NCBI GenBank assembly: GCA_964365245.1
Contig: CAYIOX010000002.1
Span: 1-33,604, forward strand
Direction: 5' to 3'
DNA: 33,604 bases
From: an uncultured Candidatus Saccharibacteria bacterium
GTDB taxonomy: Bacteria > Patescibacteriota > Minisyncoccia > Phycocordibacterales > UBA9973
In this document: positions 7,601 to 14,164 of the stretch, piece after piece
Numbering within the stretch: the stretch's first letter is position 1
Layout: each line of letters begins with the position of its first letter
The notes under the pieces: model-generated
What the model saw: the letters and a program-made list of their open reading frames with translations, nothing else
Database searches by the model: none
Told to the model about the DNA's origin: nothing
Made by a program: the position numbers and the translations under genes

Positions 7601-8845
7601 CTAAACGAATCTCCTCGGTATTGGAAACTTCTTTGCCAAAGCCTTGATTTCCTTATGTGCTGATTCTTTTATCTTCTTGTCATCTTTATTTTTTAGAACG
7701 GTTATCATAAGCTCGGCTACTTTCTTGCACTCCTTCTCTTTGAAACCGCGAGTAGTGATAGCTGGAGTTCCAAAACGGATGCCTGAAGGATCAAGTGGCT
7801 TCCTTGTGTCCCCTGCTATCGCATTCATGTTTAAGGTGATACCCACTTCGTCTAGAACTGTCTGCGCTTCTTTACCAGTCACACCCAAAGAACCAAAGAC
7901 GTCAGCCAAAATGAGATGGTTATCCGTTCCGCCACCTATCATTCTAACTTTATTTTTTTTAAAAACTTCTTCCATGGCTTTTGCGTTTTTCAAAATTTGT
8001 TTTGCGTATTGTTTGAATTTTGGCGCCATGGCTTCACCGAAGGCCACAGCCTTCGCTGCAACGATGTGCATATGCGGACCACCTTGAATACCAGGAAAAA
8101 TCGCTTTATCGATTTTTTTTGCAATTTCTTCATTCTCTCGTGTAAGAATTATCCCCCCACGCGGACCACGAAGAGTTTTGTGCGTAGTGGAAGTGATAAT
8201 ATCAAAACCATCATCAAAGGGATTGCGAAGGACACCAGCAACGATGAGCCCAGCAATATGCGCCATGTCGGCCATGGTGATAGCTCCGACTTCACGCGCA
8301 ATTTCTACGAATTTTTTATAATCCAAAGTGCGAGGATAAGCTGAAAATCCAGCAATAATTAATTTTGGTTTATTGATAATAGCCACTCTTCTCATGTCTT
8401 CATAATCAATTTCTCCCGTATTGGGATCTTTCATTTTATAGGTGACAAATTTATAAATCTTTGCCGGTAAAGTCATCGGATGACCATGGGTCAAGTGTCC
8501 ACCATGCGAAAGGTCCATGCCCATAACTGTATCTCCATGGTTAAGAAGCGCCGCATATACTGCTAAATTTGCTGGCGCGCCAGAATGCGGTTGAACATTG
8601 GCAAACTTGCAATTAAATAATTTACAAACACGCTCTATGGCTAGACGCTCCACCTGATCAGTAAAATCTTGTCCGCCATAATATCGACGACCTGGATAGC
8701 CCTCAGAATATTTATTTGTAAAAACAGAGCCGTTAGCTTTCAAAACATCTTCTGAAACATAGTTCTCAGATGGAATAAGTTCAAGCCCTTCTCTCTGTCT
8801 CTTCTCCTCCCCCTTTATTAACTTTTCTATTAGTTTATCTCGCAT
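7601..8845 (-). CDS. glyA: Serine hydroxymethyltransferase
   Basis: 414 aa. LELIPSENYVS and PLP-lysine motif TSTTHKTLRGPRGG. Confidence 0.97.
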   Translation of the reverse strand: MRDKLIEKLIKGEEKRQREGLELIPSENYVSEDVLKANGSVFTNKYSEGYPGRRYYGGQDFTDQVERLAIERVCKLFNCKFANVQPHSGAPANLAVYAALLNHGDTVMGMDLSHGGHLTHGHPMTLPAKIYKFVTYKMKDPNTGEIDYEDMRRVAIINKPKLIIAGFSAYPRTLDYKKFVEIAREVGAITMADMAHIAGLIVAGVLRNPFDDGFDIITSTTHKTLRGPRGGIILTRENEEIAKKIDKAIFPGIQGGPHMHIVAAKAVAFGEAMAPKFKQYAKQILKNAKAMEEVFKKNKVRMIGGGTDNHLILADVFGSLGVTGKEAQTVLDEVGITLNMNAIAGDTRKPLDPSGIRFGTPAITTRGFKEKECKKVAELMITVLKNKDDKKIKESAHKEIKALAKKFPIPRRFV

Positions 8846-8851
8846 GCTTAT

Positions 8852-8860
8852 AATATAACA
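8852..8860 (-). promoter_or_regulatory. Extended -10 TGtTATATT, 6 nt upstream of the glyA ATG
   Basis: Minus strand reads ...TGTTATATTataagcATG. It lies in the 17-nt gap after the MBL gene stop. Confidence 0.35.
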
Positions 8861-8862
8861 AA

Positions 8863-9732
8863 TTACCTACTAAATGAAAACTTTTCTTTAAGTCCGTCAG
8901 ATTGCATGATTATTGTGCCAAGCAGATCAGTGCGAAAAATTTTTACGCCAAATGAAATCAATGTATCCAGCGTATCTTTATGCGGATGGCCATAATTATT
9001 ATTTTTACCATTTGAAATAAGAGCATAAATGGGTGCTACAGCCTTCACGAATGAGGCACCAGTAGAAGTGCGAGAGCCATGATGTCCAACTTTTAAAATA
9101 GAACTCTGAAGATCGCCAGCTCTATTTTCTTTTAAGATTATTTTCTCTGTTTCAATCGTAGCATCTCCAGTCAACATGACAGATGTTTTTCCATAAGATA
9201 ATCTGCCAATGATTGACCCATCATTGCTGTCCCATAATGAGACATCTCTGTCTGGAAATAAAATGTCGATAATCGCACCACCACCAATATCCAACCTCAT
9301 GCCCTTTTTTGCTAAAATATTTGGAATTTTTTTATTTTTTATTTCTATTTTTAAATTTTGATAAACTTTTGAATCATTATATGTCCCCGGTTTAAAAACT
9401 TTGTCCACTTTATAGGTTTTTAAGATGTCTAAAAATCCCCCGATGTGATCTTGGTCCGGATTGGTGACAATAATGGCGTCTATATGTTTGTCAAACGGAG
9501 ACATCACACGCGCAAGAGCACTTAAAATTTTTCTCGGTGGTCCACCATCCACTAATACTTGTGTGCCAGTTGGAGATTCTATAAAAAGCGCGTCTCCTTG
9601 ACCGACATCCAACATCGCAAAGGTGAGATCTTTATTTAAGCTTTTAAAATCAAGGAAAAAAAGATAAATAGTTCCTAAAAAAAGCAAAAAGACGATAAGA
9701 GGTAAAAGATATCTCTTGCGATTTTTCAGCAT
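8863..9732 (-). CDS. Stand-alone membrane-anchored metallo-beta-lactamase-fold protein of the ComEC C-terminal domain type
   Basis: N-terminal TM helix YLLPLIVFLLFLGTIYLFFL. ComEC-MBL-like MLDVGQGDALFIE, LTGDATIETE, KVGHHGSRTS, NNYGHPH. The HxHxDH motif reads NPDQDH (checked at the DNA level). Confidence 0.8.
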   Translation of the reverse strand: MLKNRKRYLLPLIVFLLFLGTIYLFFLDFKSLNKDLTFAMLDVGQGDALFIESPTGTQVLVDGGPPRKILSALARVMSPFDKHIDAIIVTNPDQDHIGGFLDILKTYKVDKVFKPGTYNDSKVYQNLKIEIKNKKIPNILAKKGMRLDIGGGAIIDILFPDRDVSLWDSNDGSIIGRLSYGKTSVMLTGDATIETEKIILKENRAGDLQSSILKVGHHGSRTSTGASFVKAVAPIYALISNGKNNNYGHPHKDTLDTLISFGVKIFRTDLLGTIIMQSDGLKEKFSFSR

Positions 9733-9738
9733 GCTATA

Positions 9739-9747
9739 ATACTAGCA
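9739..9747 (-). promoter_or_regulatory. Extended -10 TGcTAGTAT, 6 nt upstream of the MBL-gene ATG at 9732
   Basis: Minus strand reads ...TGCTAGTATtatagcATG. Confidence 0.35.
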
Positions 9748-9778
9748 TGACCCTTTTATTATAATAATCGGGGTCATG
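9746..9778. promoter_or_regulatory. Inverted repeat CATGACCC-N17-GGGTCATG in the divergent MBL/sod intergenic region (possible operator or hairpin)
   Basis: 8-bp perfect arms at 9746..9753 and 9771..9778. The AT-rich 17-nt spacer contains TATAAT-like hexamers on both strands. Confidence 0.3.
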
Positions 9779-9795
9779 GTGAGTAAACACGAACT

Positions 9796-10419
9796 ATGAA
9801 AAAATTTGAAGAAATAAAATTTAACCTGCCTGCGCAGGCAGGTATCGTCCAATTAAAAGGAATTTCGGCTAAAAATATCGAGGAGCATTTAAAACTCTAC
9901 GCTGGGTATGTAAAGAATGCGAATTTGATTTTAGAAAAAATTCCTGAATATAAGGGCTACGAAAAAGAAGACGCTTTTGCACCCTATGTAGTGAGCGAAA
10001 TTCAGCGTAGATTTAGTTTTGAATTTAATGGAATGCGAAATCATGAATACTATTTCAAATCATTAGAGGGTGGTGCAAAGCCACTGCCGGCTCAATCTCA
10101 ATTAAAATTAGCTATAGAAAAAATGGGAGTGTCTTTTGATGTTTGGTTAAATGGGTTCAAAACCCTCGCAATGACCCGTGGCATCGGCTGGGCAGTGCTT
10201 TATTATGACAAACAGACAGACCAATTGATACAAACATGGGTAGATGAACAACATTTAGGTCAACTAAACGGACTCTCGTGGATTTTAGGTATTGATATGT
10301 GGGAACATGCTTATGTCTATGACTACCCAACTTCAGAAAAGAAAAAATACGTTGAAGCATTTTTTGATAATCTAAATTGGGAGGTAATCGAAAAAAACTT
10401 TAAAAAGGCTCAGCAATAA
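9796..10419 (+). CDS. Fe/Mn-family superoxide dismutase (divergent N-terminal helix)
   Basis: 207 aa. Aligns by eye with FeSOD: IEEH (first His ligand), FNGMRNHEYYF (second His), GIGWAVLYY, DMWEHAYVYDY (Asp and His ligands), NWEVI. The usual HYGKHH reads HLKLY. Confidence 0.85.
   Translation: MKKFEEIKFNLPAQAGIVQLKGISAKNIEEHLKLYAGYVKNANLILEKIPEYKGYEKEDAFAPYVVSEIQRRFSFEFNGMRNHEYYFKSLEGGAKPLPAQSQLKLAIEKMGVSFDVWLNGFKTLAMTRGIGWAVLYYDKQTDQLIQTWVDEQHLGQLNGLSWILGIDMWEHAYVYDYPTSEKKKYVEAFFDNLNWEVIEKNFKKAQQ
9824..9843. repeat. Perfect 20-nt G+C-rich palindrome ACCTGCCTGCGCAGGCAGGT inside sod
   Basis: Self-complementary over all 20 nt. Encodes NLPAQAG in-frame. Shares CCTGCCT/AGGCAGG arms with 11719..11738. 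Confidence 0.85.
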
Positions 10420-11893
10420 ACTGTTTTATACTCCTACCAAAAAGTCTATAGATAAAATAGGCATAGATTAGTATGGTTAAACCTAATGGAAAATTTGGGA
10501 AAGTAAAAGCAGCAAAAGGTAAATTTGAGAAAAAACTGACGACCCAGAGTTCATAATGGAGAAATAAATACGAAATAAATCCGAATGGCACACTAAATCC
10601 ATGCCAAATAAGTCCGACGAAGCCGGTCATAAAACCGAACAACATTGTAAACGGAATAAAAGGAAGAATTAACATATTCGCTGGAAGCGCAACCAAAGAC
10701 AAATTGCCCATTTTGTAAAGAATAAAAGGTAAAACAAAAACATAAGCAGAAAAAGTTACGGACATAATATCTCGTAATTTAAAGAAATCTGGCACCCAAA
10801 GGAAATATTTTTCAACTCTGGGGGCTAAAAAGATAACTGCAATAGTCGCAATAAAAGAAAGCTGAAAAGAAACATCATACACAAGCACAAAGGGATTAAA
10901 TAAAATCATAAACACACCAGCCAAAATCAAAGCTCGCGCCACATCATAATTCCTGCCAGTTGCTCGAGCGATGAGCACGAGCACAGCCATTACCCCAGCT
11001 CTTATAGCCGTAGAACTTCCACCAGTCATTAGTATAAAAAATAAAATAGCCAAAATACCCATTCCAATACCGAGATTTTTTGGCAAAAAAACAAATAATT
11101 TCATTATCCACTCTGCCACTATCGTCACATTATATCCAGACAATGCCACTATATGTATGGTGCCTGTATTCACAAAACTCTCTCGCAAAGACTGATCAAA
11201 AGAAGATTTCTCCCCTAAAATAAGCCCACCCATTAAAAGTGACTCAGGGCTTTGAATTGCAAAATTCATCTTTTCTAAAAATTTTTCTTTTACAAAAAAG
11301 AGTGCACTTTTTAAAAAATTACCGTTACCCCTAGAAACAATTTTAATAGTCGGATAACTCATCACATACAAAATCCCGTCTTTACGTAAATAATTTATAT
11401 AATCAAAATCTTTACCTTGATCTGTGATAAAATTCTCCGGCTTTTCTAATTTACCATAAAAATTCACTTCATCACCATATTTAAAATCATCACCCAAATC
11501 TATTGTCACTAAAATTTTTGTTTTCTCCTTCTCTAGGAAAATTCCTATAGCCAATTTCTGATTATTTTCTCCAATACTTGGTTCATCTACAATTTCTCCA
11601 GAAAAAGAAGCTTTCTGTCCGACTTTTGACTCGAAAACACTCGGCGCCGGCAAATCAACTACAATAAATCTAAAGACACCCAAACAAAAAGCTAAAACAA
11701 AAATAGAAAATAATACCCCCTGCCTACCGGCAGGCAGGCACTTGTTTTTAGAAATTAGAGAGAAAAATAAAAATAAAGAAAAAGAAATTACTCCAAACAA
11801 AATAATTAAATAGAAATTTACAGAAACAAGAGAGCGCAAAAGCACCCCAAAAATAAAACCGAAACAAATTGTATAGAAAATCTTATCTCGCAT
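10400..11893 (-). CDS. comEC: ComEC/Rec2 DNA-uptake channel protein, N-terminal OB/DUF4131-like plus competence (TM) domains only, with no MBL domain
   Basis: 497-aa polytopic ORF with a soluble insert (KASFSGEIVDEPSIGENNQKLAIG...). Competence-domain signatures GTIHIVALSGYNVTIV and MTGGSSTAIRAGVM. Its 3' end overlaps the sod 3' end by 20 nt (convergent). Confidence 0.85.
   Translation of the reverse strand: MRDKIFYTICFGFIFGVLLRSLVSVNFYLIILFGVISFSLFLFFSLISKNKCLPAGRQGVLFSIFVLAFCLGVFRFIVVDLPAPSVFESKVGQKASFSGEIVDEPSIGENNQKLAIGIFLEKEKTKILVTIDLGDDFKYGDEVNFYGKLEKPENFITDQGKDFDYINYLRKDGILYVMSYPTIKIVSRGNGNFLKSALFFVKEKFLEKMNFAIQSPESLLMGGLILGEKSSFDQSLRESFVNTGTIHIVALSGYNVTIVAEWIMKLFVFLPKNLGIGMGILAILFFILMTGGSSTAIRAGVMAVLVLIARATGRNYDVARALILAGVFMILFNPFVLVYDVSFQLSFIATIAVIFLAPRVEKYFLWVPDFFKLRDIMSVTFSAYVFVLPFILYKMGNLSLVALPANMLILPFIPFTMLFGFMTGFVGLIWHGFSVPFGFISYLFLHYELWVVSFFSNLPFAAFTFPNFPLGLTILIYAYFIYRLFGRSIKQFIAEPF
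11719..11738. repeat. Near-perfect 20-nt G+C-rich palindrome CCTGCCTACCGGCAGGCAGG inside comEC
   Basis: One mismatched pair out of ten. Encodes CLPAGRQG in a loop between TM helices, in the same CTG-CCT-GCx (LPA) frame as the sod copy. Confidence 0.8.
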
Positions 11894-11910
11894 TTAAAAA
11901 TACTTAAATT

Positions 11911-12435
11911 TTATTTTCCTTGTCCCGTAGTGAGCTCTGCTCTACTACCGGGATTAAGTTCCACAGGTTCACCTTCCGCAAAACTTGTGGCTATGAGGTC
12001 AGCGCGATCATTGTATTTGTCTTCATTGTGTCCTTTTACATAAGTCCATTTAGGTTTCAACTCTTTTACAAGAGCATAAAGTTCTTCCCAAAGTTCACGA
12101 TTTAAGACTGGCTTCTTCCCAGCATTTCGCCAATTATTTTTCTGCCAATTGAAAATCCACTCTGTGATACCCAAAATCACATACTTGGAATCTGAAACAA
12201 TCTCTATGTCAAAGATGCCCTTTGACATATTGGATTTTAAATATTTTAAGGCTTCTATGGGTGCAGTCAGTTCCATTTGATTATTCGTAGCATGGTCTAC
12301 TTTTCCACCTATCTCATGTACACCCTTCGAGTCGCCAGAGTTTTGTGCTAACAAAACGACAGCGCCCCAGCCAGCTCTCCCCGGATTTCCCTTCGCCGCC
12401 CCGTCGGTATAAATTGTAATTTTTTTATCTTGCAT
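11911..12435 (-). CDS. rnhA: Ribonuclease HI
   Basis: 174 aa. TDGAAKGNPGRAGWGAVV, NNQMELTAPIEAL, VSDSKYV, NDRADLIA (DEDD residues). It carries a C-terminal tail of about 25 aa. Confidence 0.92.
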   Translation of the reverse strand: MQDKKITIYTDGAAKGNPGRAGWGAVVLLAQNSGDSKGVHEIGGKVDHATNNQMELTAPIEALKYLKSNMSKGIFDIEIVSDSKYVILGITEWIFNWQKNNWRNAGKKPVLNRELWEELYALVKELKPKWTYVKGHNEDKYNDRADLIATSFAEGEPVELNPGSRAELTTGQGK

Positions 12436-12441
12436 AAATTT

Positions 12442-12450
12442 ATTTTATCA
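12442..12450 (-). promoter_or_regulatory. Extended -10 TGaTAAAAT, 6 nt upstream of the rnhA ATG
   Basis: Minus strand reads ...TGATAAAATaaatttATG, in the 22-nt gap after the recJ stop. Confidence 0.4.
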
Positions 12451-12457
12451 CAAAGTA

Positions 12458-14164
12458 TTAAAAAATATCCTCGATCCGCAAACGCAACTCTTCTCTTCCC
12501 CGAAACCTTGATAAATCAAAAGTGGCAAGCAGGTTTACAGCAATACCTTCTGATAATTTTTTCTGAAAAGAATCGCTATTAGAAAAAAAAGACACCGCTT
12601 TGGCTCTATTTAAATTAAAATCAGAAAAAGTAATTTCTAAATGTTCACCAGAACCATTTTTGCCAAATTTTTTTATCTTTTCTATTTTCACACTTTCAAA
12701 AAGAAAAATTGGTTTCGGATTGCCAAAACCAAAAGGTTCAAGCTTCTCTATTTCACGCCAATTTTTCATATTTACTGCATTTAAATCCAGCTTCAAATCA
12801 AACCCCTCCTGACTCCCCTTATCAGGGGAGGTTCCCATTTCTCCTCCTGACAAGGAGGAGCTAGAGGAGGTTGTATTTTCTTGTTTTATTTTACTAAAAG
12901 AATTGGATAAAGCTTCTTCCAAGAAGAATATCTTCTCATTATAAACAGAAAAACCTCCAGCGAGTTCATGTCCGCCAAAATCCATAAAAGATTCCCTCGT
13001 TTCAGTCATAAGTTCTACTATTGAAACCGAACCGTCACTTCGGCAAGAGCCCTTGATGCAGTCATTTTCATCTTTGCCCCAAACAAAAACAGGCTTTTGG
13101 TATTGGTCAGAAATTTTTCCAGCAACAAGCCCCAGAACACCCACTCGCCATTTCGGATTACCCACCACTATCACCTCTCTCATTTCTGTTGTCTCAAACT
13201 TTTTATGGACCTCGCGCATAATGCTTGTAACAATAGTCTTTCGATCATTATTTATTTTTGATAAATGATCCGCAAGCATTCCGGCCTTCACTTCGTCATC
13301 AGTCGCAAGAAGTTCAAAAGCTCGCATCGGATCATCCATGCGGGATGCGGCATTTAGGCGTGGTGTTACCATAAAACCCACATCATCAGGAGAAAGATGT
13401 TTCTGAACAATATTCATCTTGGCGAAAAGCTTTTGTAAACCGGGGCGAGGAGATTTCTTCAACACCTTCATTCCAAAATACGCAATAGCTCTATTTTCTC
13501 CCGTAAGCGGAACCATATCAGAAAGTGTGGCGAGACCCGCCATATCAAGCATCCATTTTTCTGCCCCTTCTCGGGTTTTAAAATGTTCTTTGTATTTTTT
13601 AAGAAAACCCTGCGCAAATTTAAAAACAACACCCGCCCCACACAACATTTTTTCGGAATAATTATCTACTTTGGGATTCAAAATTGCACAAGCGCGAGGT
13701 AAAACTTCTTGAGGTAAGTGATGATCAGTAATTATCACATCAATGCCGTCAATTTTAGCCTGCGCTACTTCAGCCACAGCTGTGATTCCCAGATCAACGG
13801 TTATTAAAAGTTTTATCCCAAAATTAACAAACTTTTCAATAGCTTCTAAATTCAACCCATAACCTTCAGAATTTCTCTGCGGTATGTAAACTTCGTAATT
13901 TTTATATCCCAAAAGTTGAAACAAGTCATTTAGAATCACAGCCCCGGGTATGCCATCGCAGTCATAATCAGCATAAATAACAATTTTCTCTTTATTCTCT
14001 ATAGCCTCATATAGACGGACACAAGCCTTCTCCATATCGCGCATTAAAAAAGGATCATGCAAATCTCGTTTGTAGTCTGGATTTAAAAAAATCTCTGCTT
14101 GTTTTTCGTTAACAATACCCTTTTTCTCTAGGAGGGTTCTCAATAATTCACCATATTGTTGCAT
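12458..14164 (-). CDS. recJ: Single-stranded-DNA-specific 5'-3' exonuclease RecJ
   Basis: DHH-family motifs ADYDCDGIPG, ITVDLG, IITDHH; DHHA1 FGGHELAGGFS. Start placed at ATG 14164 (MQQYGELL...). The ORF-track start at 14251 would run through the HIT gene start. Confidence 0.92.
   Translation of the reverse strand: MQQYGELLRTLLEKKGIVNEKQAEIFLNPDYKRDLHDPFLMRDMEKACVRLYEAIENKEKIVIYADYDCDGIPGAVILNDLFQLLGYKNYEVYIPQRNSEGYGLNLEAIEKFVNFGIKLLITVDLGITAVAEVAQAKIDGIDVIITDHHLPQEVLPRACAILNPKVDNYSEKMLCGAGVVFKFAQGFLKKYKEHFKTREGAEKWMLDMAGLATLSDMVPLTGENRAIAYFGMKVLKKSPRPGLQKLFAKMNIVQKHLSPDDVGFMVTPRLNAASRMDDPMRAFELLATDDEVKAGMLADHLSKINNDRKTIVTSIMREVHKKFETTEMREVIVVGNPKWRVGVLGLVAGKISDQYQKPVFVWGKDENDCIKGSCRSDGSVSIVELMTETRESFMDFGGHELAGGFSVYNEKIFFLEEALSNSFSKIKQENTTSSSSSLSGGEMGTSPDKGSQEGFDLKLDLNAVNMKNWREIEKLEPFGFGNPKPIFLFESVKIEKIKKFGKNGSGEHLEITFSDFNLNRAKAVSFFSNSDSFQKKLSEGIAVNLLATFDLSRFRGREELRLRIEDIF
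12803..12870. repeat. G+C-rich hairpin-forming segment inside recJ encoding a low-complexity linker
   Basis: Hairpins CTCCCC-ttatca-GGGGAG (12813..12830) and CTCCTCC-tgacaa-GGAGGAG (12841..12860). Direct repeat CCTCCTGAC at 12805 and 12843. Encodes SSSSLSGGEMGTSPDKGSQEG. Confidence 0.75.

Follow-up and report, generated by a model that had tools for sequence, protein, structure and literature searches.

The window analysed here is a 33,604-nucleotide stretch of contig CAYIOX010000002.1 from a member of the Nomurabacteria, whose genome is represented by a MAG of 557 kb and 56 contigs with 75% completeness. Its comEC locus consists of a channel gene (comEC-N) and a nuclease gene, with a superoxide dismutase gene (sod) between them on the opposite strand (Table 1). 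The original prediction had placed a half with the OB fold and transmembrane (TM) region and a half with the metallo-beta-lactamase (MBL) domain in separate open reading frames at these coordinates, and both are present there, on the minus strand. The plus-strand sod that it described between the halves, sharing 20 nt at the 3' end with comEC-N, was likewise found. Among relatives, an overlap of 17 nt is the most frequent (30 loci), followed by one of 20 nt (8 loci). The dN/dS values are 0.107 for comEC-N, 0.114 for the MBL gene, and 0.073 for sod, all approximate because dS is saturated; at dN/dS of about 0.1, the three genes are under purifying selection.

Table 1. Coordinates of the genes and sequence features at the divided comEC locus of the window.
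Feature	Position	Strand	Description
comEC nuclease subunit	8863..9732	-	289-aa ORF: TM11-like anchor and ComEC-type metallo-beta-lactamase (MBL) domain
Catalytic motif N91-P-D93-Q-D95-H96	9445..9462	-	Aligned to tHPDADH; first His replaced by Asn
N-terminal membrane anchor of nuclease subunit	9652..9708	-	Approximately residues 9-27, after MLKNRKR
20-bp palindrome CATGCTATAATACTAGCATG	9730..9749		Putative back-to-back promoters of the MBL gene and sod
Extra spacer, palindrome to sod start	9750..9795		Subclade-specific; same insertion in loci L028 and L116
Fe/Mn superoxide dismutase (sod)	9796..10419	+	207-aa ORF between the two comEC genes, opposite strand
GC-rich palindromic element CCTGCCTGCGCAGGCAGG	9825..9842		In-frame insert in sod, adds PAQAGI
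sod/comEC-N convergent 3' overlap	10400..10419		20 nt shared
comEC-N, channel subunit	10400..11893	-	497-aa ORF: OB fold/DUF4131 and Competence TM domain
GC-rich palindromic element, related to CCTGCCTGCGCAGGCAGG	11719..11738		In-frame insert in comEC-N, adds LPAGRQ

In domain profile searches, comEC-N matched DUF4131 (PF13567) at E 4.5e-14 (52.9 bits; cut-off, 31.6) and Competence (PF03772) at E 6.9e-50 over profile positions 1-265 of 270. Its product is the equivalent of TM1-TM10 of one-piece ComEC and carries a short, basic tail at its cytoplasmic C-terminus. The Competence domain occurs as a single copy in the whole genome (557 kb, 75% complete), and a second, complete comEC was found neither in this genome nor in 100%-complete relatives. 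ComEC-dependent transformation has been demonstrated in Saccharibacteria, another lineage of the Patescibacteria (CPR) (PMC10633639).

The nuclease frame matches Lactamase_B (PF00753) at E 2.6e-12, and its best match of all NCBIfam families is TIGR00361 (E 3.4e-40). Against 9ic4_A, the structure of the isolated ComEC nuclease domain, the E-value is 6.3e-38, and the next non-ComEC structure reaches only 3.5e-5. The original prediction named a grouping with non-ComEC MBL hydrolases as a sign against a divided ComEC; the closest sequences are ComEC nuclease domains only. As candidates for a second ComEC-type nuclease, two weak matches to MBL on contig 33, beside a DNA methyltransferase, were considered and rejected: the one with the stronger match to the ComEC profile fits best to a defence-type MBL family (6A-MBL), and the other matches weakly, and only to a B3-like MBL family.

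The N-terminus of the nuclease subunit is basic and is followed by a hydrophobic helix that aligns with the final TM helix of full-length ComEC, residues 15-34 corresponding to residues 515-535 of 30bt_A, immediately ahead of the MBL domain. A hydrophobic 19-mer (KD >=1.6) lies within the first 45 aa in 119 of 130 MBL homologs. Since it aligns to 30bt_A in this way and agrees with the published topology (PMC13539106), the predicted helix is ComEC's own TM11 and no new acquisition; the N-terminal TM helix originally claimed for this frame thus exists and has an identifiable origin. The active site was scored by alignment columns. The motif of the Moorella domain is H598-x-D600-x-D602-H603 (PMC12455585), and this H-x-D-x-D-H reads N-P-D-Q-D-H here, with all the other ligand columns invariant (D95, H96, D190, H217, and H249 in 129 MBL subunits). 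The first position is Asn in 85 of 89 sequences from the genus and its close relatives (86/90 including the window) and His in 19 of 22 from other genera of the order and in all 17 class- and phylum-level sequences. Given this replacement, activity or metal stoichiometry may differ in the genus.

The sod product matches Sod_Fe_C at E 1.3e-19 and Sod_Fe_N at 23.5 bits, under the cut-off of 27. It aligns with the Fe-SOD 1coj over residues 19-206 (E 1.2e-25), including the metal ligands H31, H83, D168, and H172. This gene is the sole copy in the genome, and most relatives carry a homolog at the same position.

Taken together, the two comEC frames tile a full-length ComEC without overlap, in the alignment that the original prediction had proposed as one check. 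On TIGR00361 (ComEC/Rec2, 663 positions), comEC-N covers positions 82-365 and the MBL frame 411-661, with 98.6 and 137.8 bits, respectively; the equivalog cut-off of 190 is reached by neither half alone. On the solved 801-aa chain 30bt_A, they correspond to residues 11-436 and 515-789. A one-polypeptide ComEC is not encoded here, as stops and the opposite-strand gene separate the halves, and the break point falls between TM10 and TM11, that is, in the cytoplasmic TM10-TM11 loop. One-piece ComEC has its TM11 at the periphery, where it is mobile, and its MBL domain is attached through a flexible linker together with a small conserved interface with the OB loop (PMC13539106). The most economical reading of these alignments is a two-subunit DNA-uptake machine. 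Because the nuclease domain is more active in vitro with the OB fold on the same chain (PMC12455585), action in trans might be less efficient.

The division of comEC is not particular to this genome. In a 150-genome sample of the phylum, both halves occur as separate frames in approximately 114 of the 138 ComEC-bearing genomes, and about 24 of the 138 show one half only at E <= 1e-12. All "single-span" matches in this sample resolved to two open frames. Fused ComEC frames of ~1000 aa, running antisense through sod, were considered and rejected, as a stop-codon scan showed that, at every locus scanned, stops lie between the end of the Competence domain and the MBL frame. Across the 146 loci inspected directly for fusion (139 plus 7 more), no fused comEC was found. 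The same layout recurs in >100 assemblies obtained independently, some of them 100% complete, and the window's layout is typical for its lineage. In some CPR genomes (G086, G111, and G043), the halves are rearranged or lie on different contigs, and insertions of unrelated genes between them have occurred repeatedly.

The order of events was read from a tree of both comEC halves. On this tree, each of the 15 outgroups at class and phylum level carries the two halves as separate genes side by side, with no sod between them, so the split predates the sod insertion. Within the order-level clade (99* support), sod lies between the halves in 34 of 45 cases; the sod-less cases are nested inside the clade, and two of these genomes (G017 and G030) have no sod anywhere. 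As reconstructed from these sequences, the sod insertion marks the order-level clade only, and the split is phylum-wide in Patescibacteria, an inherited layout and no local event of the window's genome. That CPR lack the ComEC-MBL fusion has been noted before (Méheust et al. 2019).

The start region described for the MBL half, TGcTAGTAT-N6-ATG, is literally present as TGCTAGTAT-TATAGC-ATG directly before the start and is conserved in relatives. It belongs to the palindrome at 9730..9749, which on the minus strand reads TG-c-TAGTAT, 6 nt, and ATG, a putative leaderless extended -10 for the nuclease gene, and on the plus strand TG-c-TATAAT, the presumed ancestral sod promoter. Before the MBL gene in relatives, TAnnAT is found in 49 of 51 cases and TGnTAnnAT in 42 of 51. 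Genome-wide, TGnTAnnAT stands 5-7 nt ahead of the start in 9.9% of ORFs versus 0.15% of internal ATGs, a ~66-fold enrichment with a sharp spacing peak at 6 nt. The motif precedes the MBL gene at 78 of 100 sod-type loci and also in genus-level secondary sod losses. Of the 15 outgroups with adjacent halves at class or phylum level, only 2 have it there, each in its basic form; ahead of comEC-N, it stands at 15 of 103 loci. A generic sigma-70 scan of the region returned 13 sites versus 12.3 in shuffles, with no enrichment; consequently, the case for a promoter is built on the motif's conservation and fixed position and on its enrichment across the genome. A shared upstream repeat on both comEC halves was sought in 8800-12600, and AT-rich chance matches were all that appeared.

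Most relatives have a spacer of 14-18 nt; it is 14 nt in 15 of 45 loci, and 13 of these 15 carry extended -10 boxes for both genes. In the window, the extra spacer has an inverted repeat of 8 bp with a loop of 17 nt (9746-9753 / 9771-9778) and, on the minus strand, a second sigma-70-like site (TTTACT-18-TATAAT, 9787-9758). Two points appear to be new: the nuclease gene has its own conserved, predicted leaderless extended -10 promoter (TGnTAnnAT-N6-ATG), and in many relatives this putative promoter is a 20-bp palindrome, back-to-back with that of sod. Leaderless genes with a -10 box just upstream of the start codon are familiar from Deinococcus-Thermus and Actinobacteria. As in those genes, TAnnAT or TGnTAnnAT stands ~6-7 nt before ATG and SD motifs are rare; unlike in them, two putative promoters face apart here inside one 20-bp palindrome, within which the start codon of each gene (CAT-G on the other strand) gives the TG of the other's extended -10.

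We consider it probable, at about 0.8, that the locus encodes the ordinary two-gene ComEC of Patescibacteria, formed by an ancient split and followed later by a sod insertion and a separate promoter for the nuclease gene. The ancient, phylum-wide split would have produced a channel gene (OB plus TM1-TM10) and a nuclease gene (TM11 plus an extracytoplasmic MBL domain). The common ancestor of the order to which the Nomurabacteria belong would later have gained an Fe/Mn sod between the halves, in opposite orientation, and this insertion would have severed the nuclease gene from its upstream operon. Since then, the nuclease gene would be transcribed from its own extended -10, 6 nt before ATG, as a leaderless mRNA. 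The two subunits may come together in the membrane by packing of TM11 and by the contact between OB loop and MBL domain known from one-piece ComEC; once assembled, they would bind double-stranded DNA, degrade one strand, and import the other.

A different history follows from the gene fission that the original prediction saw, with sod insertion or a local inversion as its possible cause: one-piece comEC would have been divided locally and recently, in this genome or in forebears close to it. The position of sod exactly between the halves, with its 20-nt overlap with comEC-N, and the different frames of the two halves agree with such an event. However, the synteny comparison turned against it, since the split exists without sod in 15/15 outgroups and at every phylum-level locus inspected, none of the 146 loci is fused, and the arrival of sod maps to a later, order-level node, which makes this history very improbable. 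A broken, decaying comEC, an assembly artefact, or a chimeric contig would be conceivable in a 75%-complete MAG of 56 contigs, but such a defect hardly comes into consideration when the same layout is found in more than a hundred independent assemblies, the 100%-complete ones included, and when the three genes show dN/dS near 0.1, intact frames, and invariant catalytic residues.

It is also important to consider that the two products might be uncoupled, with the MBL protein acting as a free-standing, anchored extracellular nuclease (for example, in nucleotide scavenging) and the channel working alone or with another nuclease. The apparently separate transcription here, each gene with its own putative promoter, would suit this possibility, as would the rearranged or contig-separated halves of some CPR genomes, the repeated insertion of unrelated genes between the halves, the genomes showing one half only, and the transformable species known to have an inactive or absent ComEC nuclease domain (PMC12455585). 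We nevertheless regard it as unlikely, because the TM11 homolog has been kept, co-occurrence and neighborhood of the halves are near-universal over the whole phylum, the active site does not vary, in keeping with ComEC-type nucleases, and the nearest sequences are ComEC nuclease domains only.

A more far-reaching proposal, which we hold to be doubtful, is that the sod insertion made a regulatory unit, in which the shared palindrome and antisense transcription would render oxidative-stress defence and DNA uptake or degradation mutually exclusive. The -10 boxes of sod and the MBL gene overlap by 2 bp, so under this proposal RNA polymerase would start one gene at a time. For sod, no terminator was found ahead of the comEC-N coding region, and its transcription would run antisense into the channel gene. 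If the proposal were true, mutual exclusion would hold across an order of CPR bacteria.

The two-gene ComEC can be compared with several known systems. Like one-piece ComEC/Rec2 (TIGR00361; Bacillus subtilis; Neomoorella/Moorella 30bt and 9ic4), it has three modules in the same order, the conserved nuclease ligands D-x-D-H, D, H, and H, and an equal inferred topology with the MBL domain outside. Unlike one-piece ComEC, it is divided at the cytoplasmic TM10-TM11 loop into two polypeptides, with an opposite-strand sod between the genes, probably separate transcription, and Asn for the first motif His. In Streptococcus pneumoniae, the membrane nuclease EndA works with ComEC, whose own MBL domain is inactive in that species (the latter from PMC12455585). 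Here, too, a separate protein with a membrane anchor would provide the strand-degrading nuclease in trans. This trans nuclease is ComEC's own domain with its own TM11, whereas EndA has no relationship to MBL enzymes. The channel gene also corresponds to the "DC-profile" ComEC of Pimentel & Zhang 2018, which combines DUF4131 and Competence but lacks Lactamase_B, and to the ComEC family that Méheust et al. 2019 described for CPR as having no MBL fusion. In the accessible parts of both surveys, the MBL domain is scored as lost or absent protein by protein; here and in the phylum sample, in contrast to such per-protein scoring, it persists as a neighboring, TM11-anchored gene under selection.

These results emphasize that the MBL domain, at least in CPR, was apparently split off and not lost, and published counts of its "loss" taken from per-protein profiles need qualifying. 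Recent structural and biochemical work on ComEC argues for a nuclease domain that is kept in place by a flexible tether via TM11 and a weak OB-loop contact (PMC12455585, PMC13539106). The phylum-wide separate, TM11-anchored nuclease in this sample would be a natural experiment indicating that the covalent link is dispensable, and the TM10-TM11 loop would be a permissive cut site, useful for the expression and dissection of ComEC.

The genome carrying the window (G000; 557 kb, 56 contigs, 75% complete) contains a single Competence domain. As the original prediction held, the channel gene (comEC-N, the N half) and the nuclease gene (the MBL half) tile full-length ComEC without overlap, because they occupy separate ranges both in TIGR00361, the ComEC/Rec2 equivalog of 663 positions (82-365 and 411-661, respectively), and in the solved full-length chain 30bt_A of 801 aa (residues 11-436 and 515-789). 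The MBL ORF proved to be of the ComEC type and not a member of another MBL family: TIGR00361 is its best NCBIfam match (E 3.4e-40, a margin of 16 orders of magnitude), and it matches the isolated ComEC nuclease domain 9ic4 at E 6.3e-38, compared with only 3.5e-5 for the top non-ComEC structure. The position of sod between the halves on the opposite strand was borne out, and its 3' end overlaps that of comEC-N by 20 nt. The gene is a genuine sod: residues 19-206 of its product align with the Fe-SOD 1coj (E 1.2e-25), including all four ligands (H31, H83, D168, and H172).

Features of the split comEC locus and palindromes in G000
Feature	Position	Strand	Pfam match
comEC-N, 497 aa	10400..11893	-	DUF4131, E 4.5e-14; Competence, E 6.9e-50
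MBL ORF (nuclease gene), 289 aa	8863..9732	-	Lactamase_B, E 2.6e-12
sod, 207 aa	9796..10419	+	Sod_Fe_C, E 1.3e-19; Sod_Fe_N, weak
Promoter palindrome retained in the window	9730-9749		
Extra spacer before sod	9746-9795		
8-bp inverted repeat CATGACCC / GGGTCATG, 17-nt loop	within 9746-9795		
CCTGCCTGCGCAGGCAGG-type copy in sod	9825-9842		
CCTGCCTGCGCAGGCAGG-type copy in comEC-N	11719-11738		
CCTGCCTGCGCAGGCAGG-type copy, contig C5	C5:12801-12818		
CCTGCCTGCGCAGGCAGG-type copy, contig C9	C9:3992-4009		
CCTGCCTGCGCAGGCAGG-type copy, contig C10	C10:11497-11514		
CCTGCCTGCGCAGGCAGG-type copy, contig C17	C17:851-868		

Elsewhere in G000, contig C33 (L003:506-3514) carries tandem MBL-fold genes of 275 and 306 aa that adjoin an adenine DNA methyltransferase-like gene. 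The longer one best matches the anti-phage 6A-MBL family and the shorter one only a B3-like MBL family, both weakly; on these matches they were rejected as ComEC-type nucleases, and together with the methyltransferase they may form a defence module.

The MBL ORF had been credited with an N-terminal TM helix of its own. The helix is present, but it is the inherited TM11 and not a new anchor: the first 34 residues comprise a basic N-terminus and then a hydrophobic helix, which aligns with positions ~515-535 of one-piece ComEC, the final TM helix preceding the nuclease domain. In the cryo-EM structure, ComEC has 11 TM helices, of which TM10 and TM11 are peripheral and joined by a short cytoplasmic helix; TM11 is not visible in one protomer, and the nuclease domain is tethered flexibly, with a small conserved contact to an OB-fold loop (PMC13539106). 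The helix alignment and this published topology place the cut in the cytoplasmic TM10-TM11 loop.

Both halves were found again, as frames of ~495 and ~290 aa, in the 60 relatives examined (36 congeneric and 24 from other genera in the order), most of them with a sod homolog between the halves on the other strand. In every locus directly scanned, one stop closely follows the Competence domain and a second immediately precedes the MBL ORF, which ruled out fused comEC frames of ~1000 aa running antisense through sod. In the synteny comparison, none of 139 loci with both halves, drawn from partly overlapping locus sets, has a fused comEC. The antisense sod alone separates the halves in 97 loci and is accompanied by extra genes in 13; the halves are directly adjacent in 24, separated by other genes in 4, and rearranged in 1. 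Of 150 genomes sampled across the phylum, each at least 85% complete, 138 had ComEC matches (the window's own genome counted) and ~114 had both parts. All 23 class- and phylum-level loci directly inspected consist of two open frames, including ten "single-span" matches that all have a stop between the halves. Thus, the two-gene split is phylum-wide.

Five phylum-level loci from several other CPR lineages (L144, L148, L149, L151, and L152) have contiguous channel and nuclease frames with one in-frame stop between them, a frequency biased by their having been chosen for a common frame. In another CPR family, a class I SAM methyltransferase (Methyltransf_11, E ~1e-26) lies between the halves (L164 of G078 and L165 of G129), and genomes G189, G073, and G198 carry unannotatable ORFs there. 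Insertion between the comEC halves is recurrent, with unrelated genes in other lineages.

The proposal that sod insertion caused the fission did not hold. In a maximum-likelihood tree of the concatenated N and MBL proteins (60 rows), all 15 class- and phylum-level sequences fall outside the order clade, and every one of them is split with adjacent halves. Members of the order group in a single clade (SH-aLRT 99), in which sod lies between the halves in 34 of 45; its sod-less adjacent loci nest within sod-bearing groups. Since the outgroups are split without sod and the sod-less loci of the order are nested, fission is older than the insertion, and sod is therefore not the cause of the split. 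Two genomes of the same genus with adjacent halves, G017 (99% complete) and G030 (97%), have no detectable Fe/Mn sod and represent a secondary loss of the only SOD the organism had.

Both comEC genes are intact and under selection. Comparison with 11-12 close relatives gave dN/dS values of 0.107 for the channel, 0.114 for the nuclease, and 0.073 for sod, which are rough since dS is saturated, yet all far below 1. A set of 129 non-redundant nuclease subunits shows no variation at D95, H96, D190, H217, and H249; the set was picked by good ComEC-profile match, so degenerate "dead" subunits would be missed. The ComEC nuclease motif is H-x-D-x-D-H (PMC12455585); its first position carries Asn in 85 of 89 sequences from the genus and close relatives (86/90 with the window's own sequence) and His in 19/22 from the order's other genera and 17/17 at class and phylum level. 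We propose that the channel and nuclease proteins would associate within the membrane and function together as one-piece ComEC does. The main rival, a nuclease working alone as a membrane-anchored scavenging enzyme, seems to us improbable.

The predicted start region of the nuclease gene, TGcTAGTAT-N6-ATG, is present and conserved: TAnnAT ends ~6 nt before the ATG in 49 of 51 non-redundant relatives, and the extended TGnTAnnAT occurs in 42. It is a general start signal in G000: of the 434 ORFs that are 150 aa or longer, 9.9% have TGnTAnnAT 5-7 nt upstream of the start, compared with 0.15% of internal in-frame ATGs. The spacing peaks sharply at 6 nt (51 cases over a background of ~6). TAnnAT precedes 17.5% of long-ORF starts, and SD-like motifs are rare (only 6.5% of starts). 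A -10 box so close to the ATG implies a leaderless mRNA, as which the nuclease gene would be transcribed, and suggests that leaderless transcription is widespread in this Nomurabacteria genome. Upstream of the nuclease gene, the motif is found in 78 of 100 sod-type loci and also in those loci of the genus from which sod was later lost, but in only 2/15 class- and phylum-level adjacent outgroups (both in basic form); upstream of comEC-N it is found in only 15/103 loci. From this distribution, the channel gene is probably read together with the upstream genes recJ and rnhA, and the nuclease gene probably acquired a promoter of its own when sod was inserted. In 15/45 loci, the start codon of sod lies exactly 14 nt from that of the nuclease gene, and a 20-bp near-palindrome, CATG-N12-CATG, provides -10 boxes for both genes, both extended in 13 of the 15. 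The window retains this palindrome, followed by ~49 nt of extra spacer common only to L028 and L116, which gives sod a leader that most relatives lack.

A GC-rich palindrome of 18-20 nt, CCTGCCTGCGCAGGCAGG, occurs in 6 copies in G000, compared with 0 expected from window shuffles. Five copies lie within ORFs of at least 200 aa in constant phase, where they add L-P-A-Q-A-G or a similar peptide, which for comEC-N is LPAGRQ. The sod and comEC-N copies, both scoring as terminator-like hairpins, occur in none of the relatives aligned and are therefore recent in-frame insertions. They are reminiscent of the in-frame palindromic elements of Rickettsia, although far shorter.

Méheust et al. 2019 had already observed that CPR lack the fusion of ComEC with MBL, and Pimentel & Zhang 2018 assign such ComEC proteins to a "DC" profile and describe domain loss (PMC6299819). 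In the text consulted, neither study mentions the MBL part surviving as a neighbouring TM11-anchored gene, and our literature search found no description of it. The present analysis adds the location of the cut at TM10/TM11, a phylum-level count backed by direct checks for stops, the relative timing of fission and sod insertion from a tree, the nuclease ligand survey, and the palindromic leaderless promoter pair. Overall, the original observation was confirmed and its interpretation supported in part: the two-gene ComEC, a split version of a known machine, was inherited and is usual in this lineage.
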